Origin: Escherichia coli
GTDB lineage: Bacteria; Pseudomonadota; Gammaproteobacteria; Enterobacterales; Enterobacteriaceae
Assembly (NCBI RefSeq): GCF_046105845.1
Contig: NZ_CP151004.1
DNA: 64,000 nt
Strand: one strand, 5' to 3'
Shown here: positions 2,003 to 60,172 of the stretch, one piece after another
How the letters are laid out: each line of letters starts with the position of its first letter
Numbering within the stretch: the stretch's first letter is position 1
The notes under the pieces: model-generated
Databases searched by the model: none
What the model saw: only the letters and a program-made list of their open reading frames with translations
What the model was told of the DNA's origin: nothing
Made by a program: the position numbers and the translations under genes

Positions 2003-2917
2003 ATGAACAAAGTTAGCATATTAATGCCTGTTTATAATGTAGAAAAATATATTAGAGCTGCGATTGGTAGTATATTAAACCAAACATATCCGAATATAGA
2101 GTTAGTAATTGTAGACGATGCGTCTACTGACAATACATTACTCATTATAGATGAAATTGCGCAAAAAAATAATAACATAATTATTGTTCGCAATGATGTA
2201 AACTCTGGAATAACCGTAGCGCTAAACAAAGGTCTTAAATATTGTAGCGGTGATTATATAGCTCGAGCTGATGGTGATGACATACAAGATCCTTTACGAA
2301 TTCAAAAGCAAATAGACTTTCTAAAGGAGAATCAAGAATATGGATTGGTTGGATGTTGGATAAAAAACATAGATGAGTCAGGAAAACAAATAGCTTCATG
2401 TAAATATCCGGTTTCAGACTTAGAAGTGAGACAATGCGTTAGCTATACATCTCCCGTACTTCATATATGGTTAGCAAAGAAAGAAGTTTACGAAAAACTG
2501 AATGGATACAGGAATACAAATCCAGCTGAAGATTATGATTTTATTTTAAGATGTTTGGATTATGGTATAAGAATAGGGAACGTTCCGTATTATGGTTCAA
2601 TGATACGTTTACGTTCAGGGAGTACATTAACTGAATCTTCTTTAAAACAACGGGTTATATCAAACTATCTGTGTAAAAAATTTAAAAAAGGCATTATTAA
2701 TACAATTGATATCGAATCTGAACTACCTAAAACAAATGAACTTAAAATTATTACTAAATTGCATTCTTGGTCATGTTTCTTTTTAAAAAAAGCAATAGAG
2801 AACAAAAGGTCGTTAAAAGGGGCAGCTTATTTATGTTTGTCGCTTATAAGTCCTTTTACAGTTCAAAATATAATAAAGAGGCAGATTTTTAAAAGAAAAT
2901 GTAACAAGGGTTATTAA
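2003..2917 (+). CDS. family 2 glycosyltransferase (O-antigen)
   Basis: 304 aa; N-terminal SILMPVYNVEKYI...VIVDDASTD and ADGDD motifs typical of GT-A fold GT2; very AT-rich. Confidence 0.75.
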   Translation: MNKVSILMPVYNVEKYIRAAIGSILNQTYPNIELVIVDDASTDNTLLIIDEIAQKNNNIIIVRNDVNSGITVALNKGLKYCSGDYIARADGDDIQDPLRIQKQIDFLKENQEYGLVGCWIKNIDESGKQIASCKYPVSDLEVRQCVSYTSPVLHIWLAKKEVYEKLNGYRNTNPAEDYDFILRCLDYGIRIGNVPYYGSMIRLRSGSTLTESSLKQRVISNYLCKKFKKGIINTIDIESELPKTNELKIITKLHSWSCFFLKKAIENKRSLKGAAYLCLSLISPFTVQNIIKRQIFKRKCNKGY

Positions 2918-2918
2918 A

Positions 2919-3962
2919 TTGATAAAAATAGCAATAATATTACCATCATTGAAAAACGTTGGACCGAATAGAGTTGCACATACTCTTATTAACAAACTAA
3001 GTGATAAAGAAGGTGTATACCTAAAGGTTTTTTATATAAAAAAAGAATTAGGATTAAATTTTACTTGTGATACAGAACTTTTGACTTTAGTTAATGTACG
3101 AAAATTATATGCCTTCGATGTCTTGCATTCACATATGCTTAGGCCAGATGTCTTGGTTGGGCTACTTCCATTTTACAAAGGCCTTAAAATAAGCACAATC
3201 CATAATATAGTGACAGAAGATATACAATATACACATGGTAGTGTGATATCTAAAATTGTCTCTGAATTATGGTTTAGGATTTGGAATAGATTTGATAAGA
3301 TAGTCGTGCTATCAAAAGTAGCAAAAAAATACTATCTGGGACATGGGCTAAAATCTAAAAAATTAGAGATCATATATAATGGAATTGATCTGGATATAGG
3401 AAGTAATATCAATTATGAAGATAAGAAAATAATAGAGGAGTTTAAAGGAGACAGTACTCTTCTGGGAACACTTTGTTTAGCAAATCACAGGAAAGGTATA
3501 GAACAGATTCTTTATGCCTTGCCATTCTTACCTAATTATAAATTTATAATTATTGGTGATGGACCTGTAAGAGAATATTTAGAAAATTTAGCTATAAGTC
3601 TGAATGTAAGAGATCGATTTTTTATTCTGGGCTATAGAGAAAACGCTAAAGATTTACTAAAATATATCGATATTTATCTAATGCCAAGTAGATCGGAAGG
3701 ATTTGGTCTCGCATTGCTTGAGGCTGTTGCAGCAAAAATAACAGTAGTTTGCTCAAATATTCCAATATTTAAAGAAATCTTTACTGAACGACAAGTGTCT
3801 TTTTTTGAATTGGATAATACAAACTCACTTATTCAAGCGATACAGAACTCAATAAGTAATGATATAAATGACGCGTATATAAGGCTAAAACAAAATTATA
3901 GCTCAGATACGATGGCTCGATTATATCATGAATTATATATGACTTGTAAGGAAGTAAAATGA
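2919..3962 (+). CDS. family 1 (GT4-type) glycosyltransferase (O-antigen)
   Basis: 347 aa; C-terminal SRSEGFGLALLEAVAAK motif of retaining GT-B enzymes; TTG start inferred from ORF track. Confidence 0.7.
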   Translation: MIKIAIILPSLKNVGPNRVAHTLINKLSDKEGVYLKVFYIKKELGLNFTCDTELLTLVNVRKLYAFDVLHSHMLRPDVLVGLLPFYKGLKISTIHNIVTEDIQYTHGSVISKIVSELWFRIWNRFDKIVVLSKVAKKYYLGHGLKSKKLEIIYNGIDLDIGSNINYEDKKIIEEFKGDSTLLGTLCLANHRKGIEQILYALPFLPNYKFIIIGDGPVREYLENLAISLNVRDRFFILGYRENAKDLLKYIDIYLMPSRSEGFGLALLEAVAAKITVVCSNIPIFKEIFTERQVSFFELDNTNSLIQAIQNSISNDINDAYIRLKQNYSSDTMARLYHELYMTCKEVK

Positions 3963-4741
3963 GGCTTTTCATATCAGTTGTATCACATGGACACGGGGAA
4001 TTAATTGAGTCATTAGGGTGTTTAGAAAAACTTTCGAAAAAATTTAGTGTTGTGCTTAAAGATAATAAAAATGAGTCCAACCTTAAAGAGTATTGCAAAC
4101 ATAATAATATAACCTACTTAAGTAGCGATATTCCTAGAGGATTTGGGGAGAATAATAATATTATATTTAACCATTGCTCATCAGAATTAGGCATGCAACC
4201 AGATGATATATTTGTAGTAATGAATCCAGATCTGATTATTGAAGAAAATGAATTGATAAAACTTAAAAATAGGATGATGTGTGAAAATATAGACTTTGCA
4301 ACTATAAATCTTTATAAAGATAGGGACTATCAAATATATGATCCATCAATCAGGAATTATCCGGGCATTCTTGACTTTGTAAATAGTTATCTTGGTTTCT
4401 CAAATAAAACAATAATAAATAAATCGGTAATTAAATCAAATACCCCGGTGCCATGGGCTGCAGGTTCATTCTTGGCATTAAAGTCTTATCTCTATAAAGA
4501 AGTTGATGGTTTTAATATCAGATATTTCATGTATTGCGAAGATATAGATATATGTATGAGGGTAGGTTCTTATGGTTATAAATTAATTTATATACCAACA
4601 ATAAAAGCCATACATCTAGCACGGCACAATAATCGACGTTTTTTATCAAAACATTTTTATTGGCATTTACGTAGTATGCTTATATATCTATCGGAAAAAA
4701 GAAAGTATGTCGCTAAAAAAAATAAGTGCTACACTAATTAA
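3959..4741 (+). CDS. WbbL-like rhamnosyltransferase (GT2 family)
   Basis: 260 aa; ISVVSHGHGELI N-terminus and YFMYCEDIDICMR segment resemble E. coli WbbL as I recall it; overlaps previous gene by 4 nt. Confidence 0.65.
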   Translation: MRLFISVVSHGHGELIESLGCLEKLSKKFSVVLKDNKNESNLKEYCKHNNITYLSSDIPRGFGENNNIIFNHCSSELGMQPDDIFVVMNPDLIIEENELIKLKNRMMCENIDFATINLYKDRDYQIYDPSIRNYPGILDFVNSYLGFSNKTIINKSVIKSNTPVPWAAGSFLALKSYLYKEVDGFNIRYFMYCEDIDICMRVGSYGYKLIYIPTIKAIHLARHNNRRFLSKHFYWHLRSMLIYLSEKRKYVAKKNKCYTN

Positions 4742-5936
4742 AGTGATCGGTGGAAATGCATTAGCTCAGATTATTGTCATATTAGGCACTCCTTTACTTA
4801 CGAGAATGTACCAACCGAGTGATTTTGGTATATATTCGACCATTATGGCAGTAGTTTTAATAGTGGGAATTATTGCATGTGGTAGATATGACCAGATAAT
4901 GTATAACTTCAATGACAAATATTCTTGGTATAAATGTTTTTGCAATGGGGTTGTTATAGCAACATATATATCTCTGTTCTGCTTAATTGTAACCAGTATA
5001 CTGTTTTTTTTATTTGAATTTGATGTGACTTACTTTATAATTGCACCTTCAGTGTTGACATTTGCGATTTTACAGTTATATACATCTTATTTTAGCTTAT
5101 ATGCCTATTACAGAATAATAATAATATTAAATATCATTCGTTCTTCAAGTTTAATTGTATTACAATTGATGTTGTTTAAAGTTATTGCAAATGGACTTGT
5201 CGTGAGCTTTCTAATATCGCAAATAATATGCGTTTTGTTTTGCTTAAGCTTCGCGGGGAAACTGAACAAAAATTTTAATTTTGAATTTAAAGTGGTTTTT
5301 ATTAAAGCTAGAGAAGCTGGATTGAGTTCTGTACAATCTCTTGCTAATTCCTTTTCATCACAATTACCTGTTCTTTTTATTCCTAGCCAATATGGGTATT
5401 ATACCGTTGGTCTATATGGATTAGCTGTGAGGTTGACTCAGATACCAATTATTTTTTTTACAAATGCAGTTAGGCCATATATATTAGGAGAATTAAATAA
5501 AAAGAAAAATGATTATCGTCTTTTATCAAAAATCCTATGGAGAAGTTCGGCTTTATTATTGATTTTAAGTATTCTTGGGATAGTTCTCATTAATTTATTT
5601 GCGGAAGATTTTTTTAAGTTTTATGCTGGTGATGAATGGAAAGACGCAGGTAAAATAGCCTCTGTTTTGTCATGGTGGCTATTAATTGCATTCGCTAATG
5701 TTACGTCGACTTCATATCTAACTGTTGTGGGGCGATTTAAATCGTTATTTATCTATGATATGCTTCTATTGGTATTCAGATTAATGTCAGTATGCTATAG
5801 TTTTTATGCGGATTTATCATTCTTAAACTTTATATATATTTATTCAATACTTGGTATGTTTTTTAATCTAGGTATTATAGGTTATGCAATAAAATGTGGA
5901 ATTCAAGATGCAAAAAATATTAATTGTTACAGCTGA
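4707..5936 (+). CDS. wzx: O-antigen flippase Wzx (MOP-family polytopic membrane protein)
   Basis: 409 aa, hydrophobic throughout with many predicted TM segments; position within O-antigen cluster. Confidence 0.7.
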   Translation: MSLKKISATLIKVIGGNALAQIIVILGTPLLTRMYQPSDFGIYSTIMAVVLIVGIIACGRYDQIMYNFNDKYSWYKCFCNGVVIATYISLFCLIVTSILFFLFEFDVTYFIIAPSVLTFAILQLYTSYFSLYAYYRIIIILNIIRSSSLIVLQLMLFKVIANGLVVSFLISQIICVLFCLSFAGKLNKNFNFEFKVVFIKAREAGLSSVQSLANSFSSQLPVLFIPSQYGYYTVGLYGLAVRLTQIPIIFFTNAVRPYILGELNKKKNDYRLLSKILWRSSALLLILSILGIVLINLFAEDFFKFYAGDEWKDAGKIASVLSWWLLIAFANVTSTSYLTVVGRFKSLFIYDMLLLVFRLMSVCYSFYADLSFLNFIYIYSILGMFFNLGIIGYAIKCGIQDAKNINCYS

Positions 5937-6933
5937 GAACGGTTGGTTTGCGCAGGGTAAATTCCCTTGGGAAAGTATGGATATTGAAAGGATAAAGAGA
6001 AGGTTGGAAAGTAATAATAAAATTGTTAATGTGACTACTTTTCAATTTCTCAAAGATAATATTGCCTCGCTGAAAGATTACATAATAATATATACATCAT
6101 CTCAACGACTGGAACATAAATATTACATACAAGATATAATGTTCTTATTAAAAGATAACAATACTCTTATCCCTAACTATGAATCACTTTTGGCGCATGA
6201 AAACAAAGGATTTCAAAGTTTACTTGATAAGAAATATAATTTGGGTTTAATAAAGTCTGAATATTATTGCGATATTTGTGAAGTAAAGAATATTAAAAAT
6301 TTGAATTATCCCCTCGTTTATAAATCTGTGAATGGCGCATCATCAATGGGGGTAAAAAAAGTCCACAACACAGAAGAAATGTATAAATATGTTAAACAAC
6401 CTTGCTCAATTTCATTGGAATTATTGAAAAGAAAACTAAAAAAATATATTTTTAAAAGCAAATATAATCATCAGTGGGAGAAATATCTGTCATTTGCGCA
6501 ACAAAGATTTATTATTCAAGGTTTCATTCCTGATTTACAATATGATTTTAAGGTGTTGATTTTTGGTAAAAAATATTATCTCTTAAAGAGGTTCGTCGCT
6601 GAGAATGATTTTAAAGCTAGTGGCAGTGGGTTGCATTCGAGAAATATTGGTAGTGATTTGAAAATCGTGTTAGATTTCGCAAGAGGTATTAAAAATAAAT
6701 TTAGATCGCACATATATTCTTTAGATATTTGTGTGAAAAATAAAGAACCACACCTTATTGAGTTTCAAATGACGCACGTTGGTCCTGTTACGTTGAGTGA
6801 ATCTGATCACTATTTTATTTACAACGCAACAACAAATAACTGGGAAAAGGTGTTTTCTTTAAGTTCTCTTGAAGATGAATTTTCTAATGCAGTAGAAGAG
6901 TATATAAATGAAAGTGATTCATATAGTGCATAA
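5896..6933 (+). CDS. hypothetical protein, possible ATP-grasp-like enzyme (O-antigen modification?)
   Basis: 345 aa soluble ORF inside the O-antigen cluster; weak motif-level resemblance to ATP-grasp (KSVNGASSMGVKKV, FIIQGFIP, LIEFQMTHVGP); alternative start at 5908. Confidence 0.45.
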   Translation: MEFKMQKILIVTAENGWFAQGKFPWESMDIERIKRRLESNNKIVNVTTFQFLKDNIASLKDYIIIYTSSQRLEHKYYIQDIMFLLKDNNTLIPNYESLLAHENKGFQSLLDKKYNLGLIKSEYYCDICEVKNIKNLNYPLVYKSVNGASSMGVKKVHNTEEMYKYVKQPCSISLELLKRKLKKYIFKSKYNHQWEKYLSFAQQRFIIQGFIPDLQYDFKVLIFGKKYYLLKRFVAENDFKASGSGLHSRNIGSDLKIVLDFARGIKNKFRSHIYSLDICVKNKEPHLIEFQMTHVGPVTLSESDHYFIYNATTNNWEKVFSLSSLEDEFSNAVEEYINESDSYSA

Positions 6934-7966
6934 TTATTATGGATTTAGCGGTGCATCTCTTCAGGCAAAAAATTTAGCAAGGGCTTTGAATAATTATAGT
7001 CCGCATATTGAACAAATATTTGTGACTAGATGTCAGTGTTGTATTTCAAAATTAAATGACCATGATCAATTTAAGGTGATAGAGATACCGATATCATATA
7101 AACGACTTTGGCATTTTTTTCTCCTGTGTAAATCAATTAAGCCGGATGTTGTACATTTTCATGGGGCTGATTTCGGTCTGCTAAGTATTTGTGCTATTCT
7201 AAAAATACCAGTTTATTGGAAATCAACTCTATTAGATAGTGATGATTTTTATACATTATTGCATCGTGGTTCTTTGAGGAAATTTAAGTTTTGGTTGTTG
7301 AAGTTCATCTCCATAAATAACACGTTAACTAAGCAAATATATAAAGTTAACCGCCAATATATTCCTACAACTAAATTAGTTACGATTCCAAATGGTGTAA
7401 GCATTTCTTGTTGTACACACAGGAATGAGCTGAAAAAAGAAAAAAATGTTTTAATAATATCTGCAATCATACCAAGAAAAAAGATTATCGAAGGGATAAG
7501 ATTTTATAAAGATAACTTTGAAAACAAAGGATATAAACTTTTGATAATTGGCCCTGATAATGAAGAACTTGATGGTTTCGAAGCAAACTACGTAACGAAA
7601 TGTAAGAGTTTAAGTAATAATAATATCCATTTTTTAGGTAAATTGAAACATCAAAGCGTAAATGAAATAATGTGTCGCTCTCAATTTTTAATCCATTTAT
7701 CTGAGCGAGAAGGCATGCCAAACGTTGTATTGGAGGCGCTGGCCAGTGGTGTCTATCCGATTATAGGAGAAATGGGTGGACTTGCTTATGAGATTATTGA
7801 AAATGAATCGTATGGTTTTATTTTTAATAACAAAAACAAGTTTGATTTAAATAAATACACTGGTGTTAATATAATGGGGATGGATATAATTGATAAAAAA
7901 TATTCATTCGATGTGATTTCAAAAAAAACAGTTAATATATATACGAAACTTATTGGTGGAAAATGA
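6908..7966 (+). CDS. family 1 (GT4-type) glycosyltransferase (O-antigen)
   Basis: 352 aa; SEREGMPNVVLEALASG motif; AT-rich. Confidence 0.7.
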   Translation: MKVIHIVHNYYGFSGASLQAKNLARALNNYSPHIEQIFVTRCQCCISKLNDHDQFKVIEIPISYKRLWHFFLLCKSIKPDVVHFHGADFGLLSICAILKIPVYWKSTLLDSDDFYTLLHRGSLRKFKFWLLKFISINNTLTKQIYKVNRQYIPTTKLVTIPNGVSISCCTHRNELKKEKNVLIISAIIPRKKIIEGIRFYKDNFENKGYKLLIIGPDNEELDGFEANYVTKCKSLSNNNIHFLGKLKHQSVNEIMCRSQFLIHLSEREGMPNVVLEALASGVYPIIGEMGGLAYEIIENESYGFIFNNKNKFDLNKYTGVNIMGMDIIDKKYSFDVISKKTVNIYTKLIGGK

Positions 7967-9084
7967 AAGAAGAAAGTCATGATAATGATAAAGGAGTCTC
8001 TTTTATCGGTTTTTTATGGCTACTGGCATGTGGGTTATATATAACAAGGATAACTGCTATTAGTCCTGTTTATCTGGTTTTTATTCTCGCATTAATGTTA
8101 GCTATTCTTACAAATATTAATTGCGGGAAATATAAGGTTTCTGTTTTTACACTACTAAGTTTAATAATACTATTACTTTCAATATTTCTTTTTTTTAATT
8201 CACAAATACCTCTCGTAATTAATCTGTTGATAGTGTTACTATCACCAATGCTAGTGGATTCTTATTATAAGAGGCGATATATTACAAAACAAAATTTATT
8301 GAATGTGTTTTTATTTTATTCCTTGGTTTTCATTCTTGATGGTTTTTGGCGAATTAAACATCCCTATCTTGAACATGTAGATAAACTAGAAGAACTGGGC
8401 ATCGGCTTTCAAATATATAAAGTGAATTCATTCATGTATTCAGATTCTAATTTTGTTGGCCTGGAAGCTGTTTTTATACTATCTTGTTTTCTTTACATGT
8501 TTAAAGGTGTTCGACGGACTGGATTACTTCGGATAAAATATTTTTTCGTTTTTTGTGCTTTATTTTTGGGGGTTCTGTTAACTTTTTCTAGGGCTGCTAT
8601 CATAGCAATGATTTTACTTTTTATATTTTTCATTTTGATGAGGAGTAAATTTATTAAAACTGTTTCGTATATGTTAGCGCCAGTATTACTTGTGGTTTTT
8701 TCATGGTTTATATATAAGAGATTTACGGATGATATAAGTTTTGAGAGTAAATTTAATTTAATTAGGTATACTCTTGAATACATTAAAGATAGTGATATTG
8801 ATATGATATTGCTAGGTGTTGGTCTGGGAAATGCAGTCGAAGTAATTGGTATGGGGGCACATAATCTATTTTTGACTTTCTTAATCGAAACTGGTGTTAT
8901 TGGTTTAGTATTGTTTTTAGTTTTATTATGCATTATGTGGTTCTATCTCAAAGAAGATGCAATCATCATCATGCTTCCATTTCTAATAGCATCAATGTCG
9001 CTCGGGACAACCGCAGTACCTTACTTTTTTACCTTTACTTGGTTATGTATTCTTTACAAAAGAAAATTGTTTAATGTCGTCTGA
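7963..9084 (+). CDS. wzy: O-antigen polymerase Wzy (polytopic membrane protein)
   Basis: 373 aa, extremely hydrophobic with multiple TM segments; only remaining membrane protein in the cluster besides wzx. Confidence 0.6.
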   Translation: MKEESHDNDKGVSFIGFLWLLACGLYITRITAISPVYLVFILALMLAILTNINCGKYKVSVFTLLSLIILLLSIFLFFNSQIPLVINLLIVLLSPMLVDSYYKRRYITKQNLLNVFLFYSLVFILDGFWRIKHPYLEHVDKLEELGIGFQIYKVNSFMYSDSNFVGLEAVFILSCFLYMFKGVRRTGLLRIKYFFVFCALFLGVLLTFSRAAIIAMILLFIFFILMRSKFIKTVSYMLAPVLLVVFSWFIYKRFTDDISFESKFNLIRYTLEYIKDSDIDMILLGVGLGNAVEVIGMGAHNLFLTFLIETGVIGLVLFLVLLCIMWFYLKEDAIIIMLPFLIASMSLGTTAVPYFFTFTWLCILYKRKLFNVV

Positions 9085-46901: not shown

Positions 46902-47714
46902 TCAGATGTAGGAAGGGCGATCGTTTTTCGGTGTATCGCCGAGAGTCGAAAGCACGGTTTTACCGATTTCGCGTGCAGAGATGACCGCCTGGCGGACTGC
47001 GCCGGAGTCACCCGAGATAATCAGAATGACTTCATTGCTGTAGCTGGTGCCTTGAGCGGGGGAGCTGTATGCCACAACATCCACATTGGCGGACTTCAGC
47101 GCGGTGTCGGCCATCAGAACACCCACAGCAGCCGGAGCGCCGACAATAACGCCGCAAGCCCGTCCCAATGGTGCACCAAACGCTTTTTCCAGTGCATAGC
47201 TGGCGCGGGCGGTATATTGCAGCTCAAGATGTCCGGCTTCGTTGGCATAGACATCGCCAAAGGTCCGATCGAGTTCTTTCAGGGCGACTTCAATACCGCG
47301 TTTCACGTCGGAAACATCGTTGCCACCTAAGAGGATCAATGAGCCATGTCCGGCACCGCCTTTAGTATCCCGAGGAAGTTCAATGCTAATAACTTCAGTG
47401 TTGGTGGCTTTTACCGCTTCATCAGCGGCCATAATGTGTGGCCCTGCGCCAATACGCGCACCCAGAATGCCAATGGAACGATAGCGTTTTTCAAGTTTCA
47501 TTGCGTCCAACAGGGCGCTATCAACGTTCGCAATGACCAGACCTACAGTGTCGCCAATAGCGGTGCCAACAAATTCTGTTAACGTGCAGCTTTTTTCTGC
47601 CATAGCCGTCTCTCGTATTTGATGAGTGGTTTTCGGGAGAACCTCATGCTCTGGCGTCGCTACGCGAGCGATGACCTGCGCCATGATCTGTTTGACCAGT
47701 TCATTGCTGCTCAT
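46902..47714 (-). CDS. pduB: BMC shell protein PduB (tandem BMC domains; internal start gives PduB')
   Basis: 270 aa; in-frame internal Met at residue 38 (codon 47601..47603). Confidence 0.95.
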
Positions 47715-47995
47715 GGGTTAATTCCCTTTGGTAAGATTTTTTCGACATCGGTATGTGGGCGGGGAATAATGTGCACGGCTTTTACTTCGCCGACGTTACG
47801 CGCAGCTGCGGCACCTGCGTCTGTTGCCGCTTTTACCGCCCCGACATCACCACGAACGATGACGGTCACCAGCCCGGAACCTATTTTTTCGTAGCCGACC
47901 AGCAAAACATTTGCCGACTTCACCATGGCGTCTGCGGCCTCTATGGCGGCAGTTAAGCCTTTGGTTTCTACCATTCCTAACGCTTCTTGTTGCAT
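47711..47995 (-). CDS. pduA: BMC shell protein PduA
   Basis: 94 aa canonical BMC hexamer protein; first gene of the pdu operon. Confidence 0.96.
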
Positions 47996-48506
47996 AAAGA
48001 CCTCGCCTGGATTTTTTTGACGATATGACTATAAAAAAAAACGAGGAAAAAGAATGGCTGACTTAATCGGCTAATCAGAAAAATTAATAGAGAACAAATA
48101 TTATAAAATTGCTTTTATGAACTATATGTTGTTAATTTATTAGTTGTTTTGTGGATATTTCAATGTGAATTAATTGCGTTGGCTAGTGAGTTTAATCGCG
48201 AGTAATATTTCGTTGAGTTTGGTTCGAGGAAGGAACTGTGATATTTGTTTCAATTTTATTATGTCATGATGGCAATTTTTTACTGTAAAAGTTTGGTGGA
48301 AATTATTACTTTCAACACTGATTAACGCTGTGTTGCATGATTCGGCAATGACAATAATTTGTTATGTTAGCACGATTTTTACACGAGTCTGTCATGCATG
48401 TTAGCAATATTTTCTGCAGAGCAATTTTTTATAGTTGCGCTCGATATACACAACAATCAGCGCATAGTTGGCTGATAAAGAAAAACTCCGTAAAGAAGGT
48501 GTCACT
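47996..48506. promoter_or_regulatory. divergent pdu / pduF-pocR control region
   Basis: About 510 nt AT-rich non-coding DNA between divergently oriented pduA and pduF; in Salmonella the equivalent region carries the PocR-dependent pdu promoter. Confidence 0.5.
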
Positions 48507-49316
48507 ATGAATGATTCACTCAAGGCGCAATGCGTTGCCGAGTTTTTGGGCACCGGACTGTTCCTCTTTTTTGGCATTGGTTGTTTGTGCGCCCTGAAAC
48601 TTGCCGGGGCAAGTCTGGGACTGTGGGAAATTTGTATCATTTGGGGGTTAGGGATTTCGCTTGCTGTTTACCTTACGGCAGGTATTTCCGGCGCTCATCT
48701 CAACCCGGCTGTTACCATTGCTCTGTGGCTGTTTGCCTCTTTCCCTGCCCGTAAAGTGCTGCCATTTTGTGTGGCGCAATTAGCGGGTGCCTTTGGTGGT
48801 GCGGTTCTGGCATATTTTCTCTACAGCAGTTTGTTTACCGATTTTGAATCTGCTCACAATATGGTGCGTGGTAGTGCAGAAAGTTTACAACTCGCCAGTA
48901 TCTTCAGTACTTATCCGGCAGCGGCGATTAATGTATGGCAAGCTGCGTTGGTCGAAGTGGTCATAACGTCCATGTTAATGGGGTTGATTATGGCGTTGAC
49001 CGATGACGGTAATGGCGTACCCAAAGGACCGCTTGCGCCTTTACTTATTGGTATTCTGGTTGCTGTTATTGGTGCTTCTACCGGACCATTAACCGGTTTT
49101 GCCATGAATCCAGCGCGTGATTTTGGACCTAAAATTTTCACCTGGCTTGCGGGTTGGGGGGAAATTGCGATGACTGGTGGACGCAATATTCCTTATTTCA
49201 TTGTACCCATTATTGCACCGATCATTGGCGCATGTGTTGGTGCGGCGATTTATCGCTATCTCATTGCAAAGAATTTACCTGTCAATAGTGTAACGCCTAA
49301 AGAAATTAGCGAATAA
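48507..49316 (+). CDS. pduF: propanediol diffusion facilitator (MIP/aquaglyceroporin family)
   Basis: 269 aa from MNDSLKAQC; two NPA motifs (HLNPAVT, MNPARD); ORF-track start 13 codons upstream. Confidence 0.93.
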   Translation: MNDSLKAQCVAEFLGTGLFLFFGIGCLCALKLAGASLGLWEICIIWGLGISLAVYLTAGISGAHLNPAVTIALWLFASFPARKVLPFCVAQLAGAFGGAVLAYFLYSSLFTDFESAHNMVRGSAESLQLASIFSTYPAAAINVWQAALVEVVITSMLMGLIMALTDDGNGVPKGPLAPLLIGILVAVIGASTGPLTGFAMNPARDFGPKIFTWLAGWGEIAMTGGRNIPYFIVPIIAPIIGACVGAAIYRYLIAKNLPVNSVTPKEISE

Positions 49317-49518
49317 CGAAATAATCTGGCAGTTATAAACGTTTATTTTTTTACTGTTTGTGATCTGCTTTCCGAACTTATTAAAAAGTCTCCCGCTTCA
49401 CGGAGGCTTTTGTTATTGTCCTTTGTGCTTCTCGTCAGTAAATCATCAGGGATGATGTGAAGATTAAATGTAAAACAATTGTTTTGCTATAACAATAAAT
49501 TAACTGGGAGGTTTTATC

Positions 49519-50433
49519 ATGATTTCTGCGGCGACACTTAATTCAGAACTCATTAATAAAATCGCGCAGGATTTTGCGCAGGCGACCAGCCTTGCGGTTG
49601 TCGTGGTCAATATTCACGGCGATGAAATTTCCGAGCTGTTTAACTTCACTCCATTTTGTCAGATGATGCGGCAACACCCTCAGCTAAGCACTCGATGTCG
49701 CATGAGCGATCGTTGTGGGGGCTTGGAAGCCTCTAAATCCGATCAGCCTTGTATTTATCGCTGTCATGCCGGATTAACCGATTTCTCTATTCCACTGGTA
49801 ATCGCCGGGCATTTAGTCGGTTTTGTATTGTGCGGGCAAGTTCGTCTGCGTAATGATGATGTCGATTTGGTCGATATTCTGAATGTCGATGATTGCTGGC
49901 AGGCAGATCCCGAATTACTTAATGAATTCCGCAAAGTTCCTGAGATGGATTACTCAAGAGTTATGGCCTCTGCTGATTTGTTGAAGTTGATTGTGGAAAA
50001 TTGCCTCAAAAAACAACTCAATTTTGTGGTTATTAAAGAGAACAAATCTCAGTCAGATTCGGTGCGCCAGACTCGTGCGCCTAATCCCCACGACAATAAA
50101 ATGAAAAAAGCTTTACGCTATATTGATGCGCATTTATCAGACGATTTGCGTCTGGAAGATGTCGCCTCACACGTTTATCTAAGCCCTTATTATTTCAGTA
50201 AGTTATTTAAGAAATACCATGGAATCGGGTTTAATGCGTGGGTAAACCAACAACGGATGGCCAGCGCTCGTGAGTTACTGTGCCATAGTGACTGGAGCAT
50301 CGCCAGCATTGCGCGTAATTTAGGTTTTTCACAAACAAGTTATTTTTGCAAAGTTTTCCGTCAGACTTATCAGGTTACGCCGCAGGTGTATCGACAGCAA
50401 GTGAGTGATAATGCGGCGATGGAAACGGTATAG
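49519..50433 (+). CDS. pocR: AraC-family activator of pdu/cob regulon
   Basis: 304 aa; C-terminal AraC HTH; matches Salmonella PocR as I recall it. Confidence 0.94.
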   Translation: MISAATLNSELINKIAQDFAQATSLAVVVVNIHGDEISELFNFTPFCQMMRQHPQLSTRCRMSDRCGGLEASKSDQPCIYRCHAGLTDFSIPLVIAGHLVGFVLCGQVRLRNDDVDLVDILNVDDCWQADPELLNEFRKVPEMDYSRVMASADLLKLIVENCLKKQLNFVVIKENKSQSDSVRQTRAPNPHDNKMKKALRYIDAHLSDDLRLEDVASHVYLSPYYFSKLFKKYHGIGFNAWVNQQRMASARELLCHSDWSIASIARNLGFSQTSYFCKVFRQTYQVTPQVYRQQVSDNAAMETV

Positions 50434-54853: not shown

Positions 54854-55014
54854 CATTCAAAACGTCTGGTTTGTCGGTCTGTGTAAGCATTCCGTCATGC
54901 AGAACAGGTTGTTTCGAATCATACAAATGATAATTTTCTTCTCATATGCGCATCTCTTATGAGCATAAACGTTATACTCTTCTGATTTATACATGTTTGC
55001 GGATGACATGATCA

Positions 55015-55992
55015 ATGGAAAAGAGAATGACGAAACAGAATAAAAACAGCCGTTGGCAGGGTTACGATCCTCGTTACATATACTCGCTCGTGGTCAGACG
55101 CTATTTTGCGGATATGAAAACCAAGATTGAGATTGCTGAGGAGCTTGGCGTTTCCCGCTTTAAAGTTGCCAGATTGATCGATGAGGCGATCGAACAGGAT
55201 TACGTGAGGTTTATCTTCCCTAAGCAGCAAGCGATGGATGAAGAAATCGCCAATAATCTACGGAAAAAATTTCATCTGGAAGATGCAATTGTTCTTTCAG
55301 TTGCTGAATCATGGACGACGCAAGAAGAACTCAATCACAAATTGGGTGAAGTCACCGCTGAATATCTTACGCAATCTCTTCATGAAGGTATGAAAGTGGG
55401 GATCGCCTGGGGACGTGTATTATCAAGTACGGTCAGTAAGTTGAGCAAGCTGCCTCCTTTAGACGTTGTGCAGTTATCTGGCGTACATCCGGGGATTGAG
55501 TTTAGTCAAGGGCCAATAGATCTTATTCATAAGATCGCTGCCATTTCGCAGGGAAAAGCGCACCCAATGTACGTGCCGATGTGGGTCGATGACGAAGAGC
55601 TTGCTGCCAGACTGGCAGGTGATCCTGCGGTATTAGATACACAGCAATATTACTCACAGTTGGATGTGGTTATCACCGGGATAGGTGACTGGAAATCAGG
55701 TTCTTCAAGCTTGTGTAAAATATTTCCGGATACCTGGTGCGAAGCTTTGTTTCAACAAGATATCGCTGCGGATGTGTGTATCTCGTTGGTCAGCAGGGAA
55801 GGGAAGATTCTTCATAGTCCTATTGAACGTCTGGGATTTGGCATTTCGACGGATCAACTACAAAAAGCCAAAAAAGTGATTGGTGTCGCCGGAGGGGAAG
55901 AGAAATATGAAGGCATTCTTGCTTCGCTGAAATCTGGACTTTTGAATGTCTTAATTACTGATTTTGATACGGCCATTAAACTTCTGGATTAA
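55015..55992 (+). CDS. SorC-family transcriptional regulator (sugar-binding domain)
   Basis: 325 aa; N-terminal HTH (IAEELGVSRFKVARLI) and C-terminal sugar-binding domain. Confidence 0.8.
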   Translation: MEKRMTKQNKNSRWQGYDPRYIYSLVVRRYFADMKTKIEIAEELGVSRFKVARLIDEAIEQDYVRFIFPKQQAMDEEIANNLRKKFHLEDAIVLSVAESWTTQEELNHKLGEVTAEYLTQSLHEGMKVGIAWGRVLSSTVSKLSKLPPLDVVQLSGVHPGIEFSQGPIDLIHKIAAISQGKAHPMYVPMWVDDEELAARLAGDPAVLDTQQYYSQLDVVITGIGDWKSGSSSLCKIFPDTWCEALFQQDIAADVCISLVSREGKILHSPIERLGFGISTDQLQKAKKVIGVAGGEEKYEGILASLKSGLLNVLITDFDTAIKLLD

Positions 55993-56043: not shown

Positions 56044-56502
56044 TCAGGATGCTGCGAGCGTATCCTCTACATATTTAGCCACGCGCGTTGCAGGTAAATT
56101 GCGGCAAGTCTCAACAAAGGCGTTATCCTGAAACAGTGTGAATAAACGACGCAATATCGACATATGTTGATCACTGGTGGCAAATGCCAGGTTAAACATA
56201 ATGCTACAATCAACTGTTAAAGCAGCATCTTCCATCTGTCCGAAAGTGACATCATTGGAGAAACGAACAATACTGATGCTGTTTACATTTACCAGCGTGT
56301 AATCGGCATGGGGAATGGCGATACCCTGACCGTTTGCCATCATTAATCCTGTCGGATAGCTTTTTTCACGTTCCAGACAGGCGTCAATGTATTCTGCAGT
56401 GATGTAGCCTTTTTCCAATAATTGCGTACCAGCAAAGGTGATCGCCGTTTGATAGTCGTTGATGCTGTTATCAACATCATTTACCAGAATTTCAAATTTC
56501 AT
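56044..56502 (-). CDS. PTS EIIA component (type 2)
   Basis: 152 aa; conserved phosphorylatable His in GIAIPHAD. Confidence 0.85.
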   Translation of the reverse strand: MKFEILVNDVDNSINDYQTAITFAGTQLLEKGYITAEYIDACLEREKSYPTGLMMANGQGIAIPHADYTLVNVNSISIVRFSNDVTFGQMEDAALTVDCSIMFNLAFATSDQHMSILRRLFTLFQDNAFVETCRNLPATRVAKYVEDTLAAS

Positions 56503-56512
56503 TGCACACCTG

Positions 56513-56797
56513 TTATTTCAGTATCTCTTCTTTAACTGCAGCGAAAATCTCATCTTCGCCCAGACCAGTCAGTAATCCAGCGCCAACGATGACACGAGTA
56601 GTAATGGCCGGGTTATCGAGTTTGGTCGATGAAACCACCAGGTCATAGCTGTTGAAGGTATCGCTGGTGCATGCCATTAACGAAGATTTATCGACTTGCG
56701 CTTCAATTTTCTCTTCTTTCAGTAAGTCCTGCAGTACAGAGACCATGATGGAAGATGAGGCAATTCCGTTTCCGCAAACTACTAAGATTTTTTTCAT
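56513..56797 (-). CDS. PTS EIIB component (galactitol-type)
   Basis: 94 aa; active-site Cys in KILVVCGNGIASS. Confidence 0.85.
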   Translation of the reverse strand: MKKILVVCGNGIASSSIMVSVLQDLLKEEKIEAQVDKSSLMACTSDTFNSYDLVVSSTKLDNPAITTRVIVGAGLLTGLGEDEIFAAVKEEILK

Positions 56798-56820
56798 TTG
56801 ATTATTCCTCTGTAAAAGAT

Positions 56821-58191
56821 TTAAAGCGCTTTTTCTAAATCCGTTTCAATCTGGCGACGTGATTTTTGTTTAATTAAGTATCCAATAGATAACAAAAGGA
56901 TACCTGCCATCACATAGCCAATGATTCCAACATGGCTCAGGGCGGCAAACAGACCAGTAAATGGATTCGCAGACGGGTTAAGCGAAGAGTACATCACGCT
57001 GGCATCCGGGTTTGTACCAAACTTCTGGAAGACTTCGTTGGTAGCCGGTGCCATCCACGATGCAATATACAGACCACCACCGAACAAAATGATCGAGGTC
57101 ACCCAGGTGCGAATAATGTTGCCATTGAAAACAGGCACCATGCAGGCAATGAAAAACACAAACTGAGAGAGGTCACCCAGTGGCATAACGCGGTTGCCGG
57201 GCAAGATCACTGCGAGGATCACAATCACCGGGATCAGTAATAATGCCGGGGCGATAACTGACGGATGACCCACAATCAGGGCAGTGTCCATTCCAACAGT
57301 GATTTGACGATCCGGGAAACGTTTGACCAGTTTTTTGCGTGCCACGTTGGAAAGCGGAACAAGCCCTTCCATCATGATAGAGGTCATACGTGGCAACAGA
57401 AGCATGACTGCAGCCAGATACATCCCTAACTGTAGGCTGGCAATTATGGTGTGGTAGGGGGATTTCCAGCCATAACCACAAAAGCCCAACAAAATACCAA
57501 TAATAAAACCAACCATAGTTGGATCGCCCAGAATGCCAAACCGTTTTTGAATAGTTTCGGCGGTCACATTCAGATTACGGAAGCCTGGGATGCGATCATA
57601 AATCCAGTTGAATGGATAAGCGAAAAGTAAGTAGGTATTGGCAACCGGGTGAGAGATCGCAACACCTTTTGGCAGGTTAAAGAATTTTTCGTTATTTTTA
57701 GCACCGAGATCGGCAGCGATCAGCGCCCAGACATGGAATAGCGCGGCGGTCAATGCGCCATACAGGAAGCTACCAGAATAGACGCCAACAATTGCCCCCA
57801 TTGACGCATTTTGATGAAGGTTGAAAACATCAACGTTAACACAGTCAGTCAGGCGGGCGACCAGCATTGCAATATTTACCGCAACACAGAGGGGAATAAT
57901 GATAGCGCCCATGCTGGAGCCAAATCCCATCACTGCAGTCGCTGCGCCACCAACATCGATGGCACTGAGCGAGGAACCTGTTGCTTCTGCTAATCCGGTG
58001 ACTGCCGGTTGCATTTTTTCCAGCATCAGTTTGATGGTCATGGTTAGCGCAATGAAACCAATGCCGACTTTGATGGCGGAGGAGATACATTCTGAAAGAG
58101 GACGGCCAAGTATCTTCATCAGTACCAGAAAGATGACCGGGATAAATATAAAATTTCCCAGATCGTTTATAAATTGCGTGATCAGTTCCAT
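56821..58191 (-). CDS. PTS EIIC permease (galactitol family)
   Basis: 456 aa polytopic membrane protein. Confidence 0.85.
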   Translation of the reverse strand: MELITQFINDLGNFIFIPVIFLVLMKILGRPLSECISSAIKVGIGFIALTMTIKLMLEKMQPAVTGLAEATGSSLSAIDVGGAATAVMGFGSSMGAIIIPLCVAVNIAMLVARLTDCVNVDVFNLHQNASMGAIVGVYSGSFLYGALTAALFHVWALIAADLGAKNNEKFFNLPKGVAISHPVANTYLLFAYPFNWIYDRIPGFRNLNVTAETIQKRFGILGDPTMVGFIIGILLGFCGYGWKSPYHTIIASLQLGMYLAAVMLLLPRMTSIMMEGLVPLSNVARKKLVKRFPDRQITVGMDTALIVGHPSVIAPALLLIPVIVILAVILPGNRVMPLGDLSQFVFFIACMVPVFNGNIIRTWVTSIILFGGGLYIASWMAPATNEVFQKFGTNPDASVMYSSLNPSANPFTGLFAALSHVGIIGYVMAGILLLSIGYLIKQKSRRQIETDLEKAL

Positions 58192-58194
58192 ACA

Positions 58195-58731
58195 TTAACC
58201 CTCAGATTTTTCATCATCTGGTCGGAAACCCATATTCCAGCGTACATCAGCGGGCTTAACCAGCAATGCATTATCGTTACGTTCAGCTTCTAGTAAGTTC
58301 TTTTTAGAATTTTCTCTGGCGGTGGTGAAGTCGAATGGGTTATCCAACCATGCATCGACAATCATTTTGCTGTATTCGAGATCGTTGACCCGGCAACCCA
58401 GTCCAATAACTTGTGCGTTATTGCTGAGTCGCGCCCGCTTTGCGGAGTAGGGGTTAGTAACCGCAACGGCTCTTATGCCCCAGTGTTTGTTGATCTGACA
58501 AGTAAAGCCAATGCCAGTCCCACAAATGTAAATTCCCAGACGGCACTCATCGCGTTGAATAATGCCTGCCATTTCGTCGGCTAGACGCGCGAAGTTATTG
58601 ACACCTTGTTCCTTACATGTGACGGGATCGTACACGATCTCCATGTTTTTCTCTTCTATGAGGTATTTTTTTATCTCCTCTTTACGTGCAAAACCTACAT
58701 CATCGCTTGCGATAGCAATCTTCGTTTTCAT
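58195..58731 (-). CDS. RpiB/LacAB-family sugar-phosphate isomerase
   Basis: 178 aa; CGTGIGFTCQINKHWGIRAV and KMIVDAWL closely parallel RpiB motifs. Confidence 0.85.
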   Translation of the reverse strand: MKTKIAIASDDVGFARKEEIKKYLIEEKNMEIVYDPVTCKEQGVNNFARLADEMAGIIQRDECRLGIYICGTGIGFTCQINKHWGIRAVAVTNPYSAKRARLSNNAQVIGLGCRVNDLEYSKMIVDAWLDNPFDFTTARENSKKNLLEAERNDNALLVKPADVRWNMGFRPDDEKSEG

Positions 58732-59079
58732 TTCATTTTGCCTGTCGTTAAGTAACTAAAGCCAAGTATGCTGTTGGTAAATATTGGTTGTCAATTGAGA
58801 TCTAAATCACAAAATTTATAACTGATTGATTTTTATGATAAAAAAAACCAATAAAAACAAATAAAAAATAAATTAAGCCAATTGAGACAAATTGGGATTG
58901 TACAGTGGCGTTGTAATGAATAATAAAAACTCATTTATTATCAATCGGATATATGGTTTTTGAACTATTGTCTTTATTGGGTTTATTTGTACTTTCCACT
59001 GTTAGTGTTTGTTTTTGTTTGCATCATCTGTGCTATGCTTGGCGTTTTCTAAGATGGGTAATAGATTTCAGGAGGAAGG

Positions 59080-59835
59080 ATGTATCTGGTTGATGAAAGG
59101 CGAAAGTTAATACTTGAAGACTTAATGTCGGCAGGTACGGTCTATGTCAGTGATCTTGCACGAAAGTATGAAGTAACGTATGAGACCATCAGGAAAGATT
59201 TGACCCATCTTGAACAAAAAGGGCTGCTGATCAAAAGCCATGGTGGGGCGACTTTAAAGCAAAGGGCCATAGAGCATCCCTTTCAGGTCAGGGAAAAAGA
59301 AAATAACTCTTATAAGAAGGCGATAGCTCGTAAAGCGCTTGATTTCATTCCGCCTAATAGTTCGATGATTATCGGTACGGGCAGTACCACTTTTGAGCTG
59401 GCTAACCTGTTATGTATGAAGTCTGGGTTTAAAATCTTCACAGATTCGCTCCCCGTTGCCAGTGTGTTGATTGAATCTGACAATCAGGTTTTTCTCTTTG
59501 GCGGCGAACTGCGTAGAAAGAGTTCCTCAGTGTTTGGGGGGTGGGCGGTATCTATGATCAACGATATACATGTTGATCTCTGTTTCATTGGAACCGACGG
59601 TTTTAGTAACATGACTGGTCCATCGACGCCTTCTTCTTCTGATGCGTTTTTGGATCGCACGATAATTTCGCACTCAGACAAAAAATATATCCTCGGTGAT
59701 TACACCAAGTTTGAGCGCAGCAGTTTGTTTAAGATCTGCGACTGGTCGGAGATCACCGCCCTTATTACCAACGATCATGCCGACAAAGAGGGGATTGCCG
59801 AAGTCGCAAAATACACGTCAGTAATAACCTGTTAG
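59080..59835 (+). CDS. DeoR-family transcriptional repressor
   Basis: 251 aa; N-terminal HTH and DeoR C-terminal sensor domain; divergent from the isomerase-PTS operon. Confidence 0.85.
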   Translation: MYLVDERRKLILEDLMSAGTVYVSDLARKYEVTYETIRKDLTHLEQKGLLIKSHGGATLKQRAIEHPFQVREKENNSYKKAIARKALDFIPPNSSMIIGTGSTTFELANLLCMKSGFKIFTDSLPVASVLIESDNQVFLFGGELRRKSSSVFGGWAVSMINDIHVDLCFIGTDGFSNMTGPSTPSSSDAFLDRTIISHSDKKYILGDYTKFERSSLFKICDWSEITALITNDHADKEGIAEVAKYTSVITC

Positions 59836-60172
59836 AACTCACTACGACACGCCTTCTCTCTTCGAATCAGCTTTGCCAAATGTAATCATTTCATAATTAT
59901 CAAGTGAGCATCCATGGCGATGCTTGCTTAGCGCCCTCTATTGAATACATCCTCTACATATTGCCAGTTTCACTTCATTTTTAGCGACGAAATCATTTTT
60001 TGAATCACGATTTGCTCATATGAGCGTAAATAGTGTCGCCATTATGTGATTTTTTGTGATCTGGATTTAATTTCTCAGATCTCGTCATTTGTCCACAGGA
60101 TCGTTGTGCTATAACTGCTCATATGAAGGTTGTTCAATGCTCATGTGAGCATTGGGGGTGAGGGGGAAGGAT

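Follow-up and report, generated by a model that had tools for sequence, protein, structure and literature searches.

A probable DeoR- and CRP-controlled back-to-back promoter region in an accessory sugar-PTS island of Escherichia coli

The 348-bp non-coding gap at positions 58732-59079 of the window (the whole 64-kb stretch of E. coli DNA analysed here) is probably the back-to-back promoter region of an accessory sugar-PTS island, under the control of a DeoR-family repressor and CRP, and we put the probability of this reading at about 0.7. The initial annotation had proposed a regulated divergent promoter pair in this gap, and the proposal was borne out by promoter-like elements conserved at both ends, by a CRP-like site, and by an operator-like motif which tracks the DeoR gene, while the two features on which it had been based, a direct repeat of caattgaga and a run of A-tracts, do not carry it. 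The general principle of such a region is unchanged by this analysis; what is added is a candidate operator, conserved across phyla, for an uncharacterised regulon, together with a testable regulatory map of an accessory E. coli carbohydrate island which comprises predicted promoters, the candidate DeoR operator, and putative sites for CRP and IHF.

The gap is bounded exactly by two divergent open reading frames. The first, on the minus strand, encodes an rpiB-like sugar-phosphate isomerase of the RpiB/LacA/LacB family (58195-58731, 178 codons, NCBIfam TIGR00689 above the cut-off) and is the first gene of rpiB-IIC-IIB-IIA (56044-58731, minus strand; hereafter operon 1), which was assigned to the Gat-family PTS by EIIC-GAT, IIB and IIA matches and by the RefSeq annotation of the orthologous locus. 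The Gat-family IIC, IIB and IIA genes follow the isomerase gene closely, with 3 to 23 nt between neighbours, so that the name isomerase-PTS operon is justified. The second reading frame, on the plus strand, encodes a DeoR-family regulator (59080-59835, 251 codons, preceded by a Shine-Dalgarno sequence AGGAGG at 59070-59075), the product of which matched Pfam HTH_DeoR (PF08220, E 1.5e-13) and the DeoRC sensor domain (PF00455, E 9e-42). The closest NCBIfam model was AgaR, with 170.7 bits against a cut-off of 260, and the UlaR model scored 87.9 bits against a cut-off of 244 bits; because all scores were below the cut-offs, the protein is considered an orthologue of neither AgaR, nor UlaR, nor the other named models.

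The island as a whole consists of a SorC-type regulator gene (55015-55992, plus strand), operon 1 on the minus strand, the DeoR gene, and a second operon, IIA-IIB-IIC-rpe-SDR (operon 2), and in the orthologous locus of ATCC 8739 the operon 2 genes are followed by hxlB. The same layout was found in Entomohabitans, Citrobacter, Enterobacter, Klebsiella oxytoca and Providencia. Within E. coli the island is accessory, being carried by 233 of 5426 complete genomes and lacking in the other 5193, and it adjoins cobUST-ldtA. The window also carries propanediol-utilisation genes upstream of cobUST, with positions 47000-50000 matching E. coli pduF, pocR, pduA and pduB at 99.1%; these are present in only 643 of the 5426 genomes, and ATCC 8739 keeps only a pduV-like remnant. 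Our search of the literature returned nothing specific on the proteins of the island or their regulation, the sole match being the gene list of a comparison of STEC lineages, in which island genes are listed between erfK and nac as present or absent by lineage (PMC5359238). An Rfam scan of 58500-59300 with E up to 1 gave zero matches, i.e., no riboswitch or known sRNA, and a terminator scan of the intergenic region found none. A 46-codon open reading frame (58953-59093) lies mostly inside the non-conserved middle of the gap.

We aligned the intergenic region of E. coli with those of six other enterobacterial genera, seven genera altogether. Most island genes at the locus of Enterobacter sp. 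EA-1 (L009) look split or frameshifted by tblastn, which suggests either a low-quality assembly or a decaying island, and its intergenic sequence was therefore used cautiously. The results showed two conserved blocks, at about 58757-58866 and 59007-59045, on either side of a drifting AT-rich middle (58867-59006) in which the second copy of caattgaga is located. In the left block, the promoter scan identified a minus-strand TTGACA-N18-CATACT, which agrees with the sigma-70 consensus at 10 of 12 positions with an 18-bp spacer and is the predicted promoter of operon 1. Its predicted -10 box CATACT (58765-58770) is read on the plus strand as AGTATG, invariant in the seven genera along with the adjacent AAGCCA, and its predicted -35 box TTGACA (58789-58794) as TGTCAA, also invariant in the alignment. 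In the right block, a predicted extended -10 element of the DeoR gene, TGcTATGCT (59031-59039, plus strand), is situated 41 nt upstream of the DeoR start codon within CTGTGyTATGmT, which is conserved in all seven genera, and similar TGnTAT... elements were read from the sequences upstream of the orthologues in Enterococcus faecalis, Paenibacillus and Streptococcus suis; the -35/-10 promoter scan did not pick up this extended -10 element.

The unit that is really repeated in the gap is CMAAY-N5-CMAAY, i.e., two CCAAT-type pentamers 10 bp apart, and the repeat finder placed CCAATAAAAACAAAT and CCAATTGAGACAAAT in one family with 10- and 20-bp spacings. Eight matches to the pattern were found in the window, four of them (candidate operators OA to OD) inside the 348 bp, compared to a mean of 0.05 matches in 2000 shuffles of the region, none of which reached three. 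The pattern was first defined on this very sequence, so that the within-window statistic is post hoc; it was for this reason tested in other loci, and these cross-lineage tests are independent of its definition.

The four candidate operators take defined places relative to the predicted promoters. OA (CCAATATTTACCAAC, 58773-58787, minus strand) lies between the predicted -35 and -10 boxes of operon 1, within the 18-bp spacer, and its offset from the rpiB ATG is 38-41 nt in the seven enterobacterial genera and 40 in Gilliamella. OB (CCAATAAAAACAAAT, 58848-58862, plus strand) lies exactly 75 bp from OA and matches the pattern strictly in all but one of the seven enterobacterial genera, at an offset of 113-116 (115 in Gilliamella), with the OA-OB distance constant at 75 bp; the site aligned with OB in Enterobacter wuhouensis, TCAACAAAAACAAAC, is one base off the pattern, and in Providencia the two halves are swapped (CAAAT..CCAAT). 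OC (CCAATTGAGACAAAT, 58878-58892, plus strand), located 30 bp from OB and containing the second caattgaga, is a full match only in E. coli, the other genera semi-conserving only its first pentamer, and in E. coli AW1.7 and HZDC01 its spacer is changed from TGAGA to TATGA with both pentamers intact. OD (CAAACAAAAACAAAC, 59007-59021, minus strand) lies over the -35 region just upstream of the predicted extended -10 element of the DeoR gene, 59-63 nt from the DeoR ATG in all seven genera, with CCAAT/CCAAC variants at the same place in Providencia and Enterobacter EA-1 (CCAAT..CAAAT in Providencia). Sequence turnover at these operator-like sites thus stays within the motif class. In each orthologous locus of about 12.7 kb, the intergenic region holds two to four matches, placed at fixed offsets, with no more than one in the rest of the locus. 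Between OB and OD, the AT-rich spacer (58893-59006) is variable in length, giving OB-OD distances of 159-193 bp among genera, and an inverted-repeat scan found in it a degenerate inverted copy of the operator, TTGTCTTTATTGG, at 58968-58982.

Relatives of the DeoR protein with 52-75% identity were found in E. faecalis, Paenibacillus, S. suis, Gilliamella and Thermophilibacter, and in all five loci (L008, L017, L018, L019 and L020, around position 5000-6000 of each) the DeoR gene and an rpiB-IIC-IIB-IIA(-SIS) operon are arranged divergently. Among the genes called or scanned around these five loci, there was none of the SorC type. In Thermophilibacter all four CMAAY-N5-CMAAY matches of the locus fall in the divergent intergenic region, the intergenic regions of E. 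faecalis and Paenibacillus carry CCAATCAAAACCAAT, and that of S. suis holds near-matches to the motif only. As read from the sequence, the motif in E. faecalis is located between TTGACA and TATTAT, as OA is in E. coli. We further carried out an unbiased enumeration of all dyads of the form 5-mer/gap/5-mer in seven divergent intergenic regions, from three phyla, which lie beside DeoR orthologues. ACCAA-N5-ACCAA occurred in six of the seven regions, in comparison to at most three in shuffled sets, and every dyad of non-low complexity shared by at least four of the seven overlaps a register of 10-bp-spaced ACCAA(T) repeats, sometimes with flanks. Because the motif co-occurs with the DeoR gene across lineages, the adjacent DeoR protein is the most likely binder, and OA to OD are probably bound by this neighbouring repressor.

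The same distribution, with regulators in these loci 62-74% identical to the E. coli protein, suggests that the whole cassette has spread horizontally across phyla. It is possible, with the odds somewhat against it, that the DeoR gene, the promoter carrying the operator within its spacer, and rpiB-IIC-IIB-IIA form one mobile cassette, which would have kept ACCAAT-N4-ACCAAT and the TTGACA-[operator]-(-10) arrangement through transfer among Firmicutes, Actinobacteria and Gammaproteobacteria, the enterobacteria having in addition acquired sites for CRP and IHF and an OA-OB repression loop of strictly 75 bp. If this were true, the cassette would represent an uncharacterised regulon with an unreported operator, and its promoter-repressor pair could possibly be used in both Gram-positive and Gram-negative hosts.

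The CRP-like site, TGAGAtctaaaTCACA (TGAGA-tctaaa-TCACA, 58796-58811), starts 1 bp beyond the -35 hexamer of the predicted operon 1 promoter and differs from TGTGA-N6-TCACA at a single one of the 10 half-site positions; the 64 kb contain only one other match to TGNGA-N6-TCACA. Its half-sites are invariant and its spacer variable, in the seven genera as well as within E. coli, and a perfect CRP site, TGTGATCAAGATCACA, occupies the same place in Gilliamella, with no CRP-like site visible in the Firmicute and actinobacterial intergenic sequences. The centre of the site is at about -45.5 from the predicted start, compared to the canonical -41.5 and -61.5. A weak promoter-like element on the plus strand, TTGTCA-N16-CAAAAT (58788-58815, 9 of 12), extends over the minus-strand -35 box and the CRP-like site, and could be a second, CRP-occluded promoter toward the DeoR gene. 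Further into the gap, positions 58819-58831 hold an IHF-like site (minus strand WATCAANNNNTTR, plus strand TAACTGATTGATT) whose 5' flank is rich in A/T and which coincides with the predicted bend maximum near 58814; six of the seven genera retain the IHF consensus, its N4 being variable, and TA...TTGAT does not vary in the alignment. The IHF-like site is given moderate confidence only, since the consensus is loose and has 7 matches in the window against 4.4 expected, and an alternative reading of the same positions is a lone degenerate DeoR half-site (ATCAAT).

The comparisons show where the motifs lie, that they are conserved and that they occur together, and from these elements a model can be built of how the region may work. 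The leftward promoter TTGACA-N18-CATACT, with a predicted start near 58758, would drive rpiB-IIC-IIB-IIA, and the rightward promoter, with its extended -10 element TGcTATGCT and a predicted start near 59046, would drive the regulator gene, the two being back to back about 290 bp apart. The DeoR-family protein would bind the pairs of CCAAT-like pentamers 10 bp apart and repress operon 1, with OA, inside the promoter spacer, blocking RNA polymerase. OB, at its fixed distance of 75 bp upstream, and in E. coli also OC, would stabilise this binding through either cooperativity or a small loop, which an IHF-type bend between OA and OB may help to form. The CRP site beside the -35 box would add catabolite control, and OD, as it overlaps the predicted rightward promoter, would provide autoregulation. 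For induction, we infer that a sugar phosphate made by the PTS releases the repressor. The OB-OD distance is out of helical phase among genera, which argues against a strict loop between OB and OD. Also counting against the model are the position of the CRP-like site at about -45.5 from the predicted start, the presence of only near-matches in S. suis, and the weak plus-strand promoter-like element at 58788-58815.

The composition of the region might also be read in another way, namely that AT-rich, curved DNA in a foreign island is coated by H-NS or StpA and both promoters are thereby kept off, with the A-tracts providing the curvature. The description of the gap as an AT-rich control region is accurate, as its GC content is 29.6% in comparison to 46.3% for the window, at the 4th percentile among all 348-bp windows, and this low GC content, in an island carried by 233 of the 5426 complete E. 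coli genomes, is in favour of xenogeneic silencing. Seven 348-bp stretches at about 2700-8800 of the window are lower still, with GC contents of 25.6-27.6%. The A-tract run is likewise present as described (58840-58874, plus strand), with A8, A5 and A6 starting at 58840, 58853 and 58863, and these three tracts are roughly in phase, which is also in favour of silencing. The run contains OB, however, and most of the A-tract sequence belongs to the A-rich spacer and flanks of this candidate operator. In the alignments with other genera and other E. coli the A5 tracts are conserved, while the A8 run (58840-58847) is unique to the window, five other E. coli and the other genera reading ATTAAAAACC. 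Compared with ATTAAAAACC, TT has become AA in the A8 run, so that two substitutions specific to this strain lie immediately 5' of OB.

The curvature that the initial annotation expected from the A-tracts was predicted with a wedge model. With the wedge parameters used here, a stretch of 105 bp around 58814 is predicted to bend by about 80 degrees, which is at the 98th percentile; the predicted bend is raised but not extreme, falling outside the ten strongest peaks of the window. Predicted bends were also raised in most orthologues, the majority with their maximum no more than about 120 bp from the start of rpiB, and a periodogram of AA dinucleotides in the intergenic region gave no clear peak at 10-11 bp. 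Against silencing as the main explanation, no match with up to two mismatches was found within 58732-59079 to TCGATAAATT, taken here as the high-affinity nucleation motif of H-NS. The predicted bend is moderate and the A8 tract strain-specific, and conservation is concentrated in discrete blocks which look like the sites of specific factors, while the most AT-rich part, the middle, drifts freely. The same architecture was moreover found in Firmicutes and in an actinobacterium, which are not known to have H-NS. Nucleoid-protein silencing, as the initial annotation had suggested it, was thus left with no specific support, and we consider it an unlikely explanation of the region, even though the AT-richness is compatible with H-NS binding, which could take place alongside the specific factors.

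The CCAAT-type repeats might also be sites for a factor other than the DeoR protein, such as the SorC-type regulator of the island or a global protein, or they might be only a compositional feature of the promoter. The enterobacterial island does encode two regulators, and the choice of the DeoR protein as binder comes from sequence comparison. The motif clusters are found, however, also where no SorC gene is near, as in Thermophilibacter, E. faecalis, Paenibacillus and Gilliamella, and the promoter of operon 2 is marked by a different palindrome, GCTCAYRTGAGC, exact copies of which were found only in SorC loci; with regard to composition, shuffled sequences failed to reproduce the dyad. We therefore regard another binder, or none, as less likely still than silencing, and the SorC protein is disfavoured for OA to OD in view of the separate palindrome which tracks SorC and operon 2.

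This 12-bp palindrome occurs in the operon 2 promoter region, between the DeoR gene and IIA2, in two exact copies (60014-60025 and 60139-60150) and one copy with two mismatches (60117-60128), and degenerate copies with two mismatches each are located upstream of the SorC-type gene (54940-54951 and 54953-54964). The copies in the operon 2 promoter region are conserved in the orthologous loci, the exact ones only where SorC and operon 2 are present. GCTCAYRTGAGC is therefore a candidate SorC operator, and its tracking of SorC and operon 2 would imply that the two regulators share out the island between them. In the same promoter region, a tandem TGTGA sequence, TGTGATTTTTTGTGATC (60046-60062), precedes the extended -10 element of operon 2, TGTGCTATAAC, and is conserved in all genera aligned; it does not fit a full CRP site.

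With respect to the direct repeat, the 64 kb contain exactly two copies of CAATTGAGA, 87 bp apart (58792-58800 and 58879-58887), where the initial annotation had located them. The first copy (plus strand) is composed of the last 3 nt of the -35 box, a single T, and the left half-site of the CRP-like element, and at its fourth base (58795) all but one of the six other genera have C in place of this T. The second is composed of the end of a CCAAT pentamer and the spacer of OC, so the contexts of the two copies differ. Of five further E. coli strains aligned, AW1.7 and HZDC01 have CAATTATGA in place of the second copy, and this copy is absent at the aligned position in the six other genera, where only CAAT is partly kept. 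Of the shuffles of the region that preserve dinucleotides, 57% contained a perfect direct repeat 9 nt or longer, and 14% contained one with at least three G/C. That the two copies form a functional direct repeat, as paired sites for one regulator, is thus very improbable: although they are the only exact copies in the window, repeats of this kind are at chance level in shuffles, the words are not conserved, and the copies overlap different conserved elements.

The operator motif that replaces this repeat could help in finding the regulon and its inducer, and it could also yield a sugar-inducible expression switch, as has been done with the tagatose system (PMC12226905).

Among known systems, the closest parallel is tagR-tagY of E. 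coli Nissle 1917, where dRNA-seq has located the transcription starts and TagR has been shown to repress, with AgaR cited as the model (PMC12226905). Both are accessory sugar islands of E. coli, with back-to-back sigma-70 promoters in a gap of about 340 bp, a DeoR-family repressor gene at one end (that of TagR in Nissle 1917), a CRP site predicted immediately ahead of the -35 box, and two or more operator repeats found by enterobacterial alignment. The transporter of tagR-tagY is, however, of the ABC type in comparison to a Gat-family PTS here, the operators are of the type CTTTCAAAATGAAAGTAAA in comparison to CCAAT-N5-CMAAY, and one candidate operator lies inside the promoter spacer in our region; the starts and the repression established for tagR-tagY are here predicted from sequence. 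Another parallel is the divergent region of ulaG and ulaABCDEF, which is controlled by UlaR, CRP and IHF (as summarised in 10.1101/2020.09.08.288738). It shares with the model proposed for our region a DeoR-family repressor over a PTS operon, activation by CRP, and the participation of IHF in repression, while the regulator here is not UlaR, the operators differ, and the IHF site here is a conserved consensus match only. H-NS-silenced islands are similar in their low GC content, A-tracts and accessory nature, and differ in that our region has no high-affinity motif, is conserved in a site-like manner, and shares its architecture with phyla not known to have H-NS. In E. coli K-12, the aga regulon is governed by AgaR through multiple A/T-rich operators with short-period repeats, plus CRP. 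The region studied here has candidate operators of the same kind together with a CRP-like site, and AgaR is the named NCBIfam model closest to its regulator, although at 170.7 bits, against the cut-off of 260, this regulator is not an AgaR orthologue.
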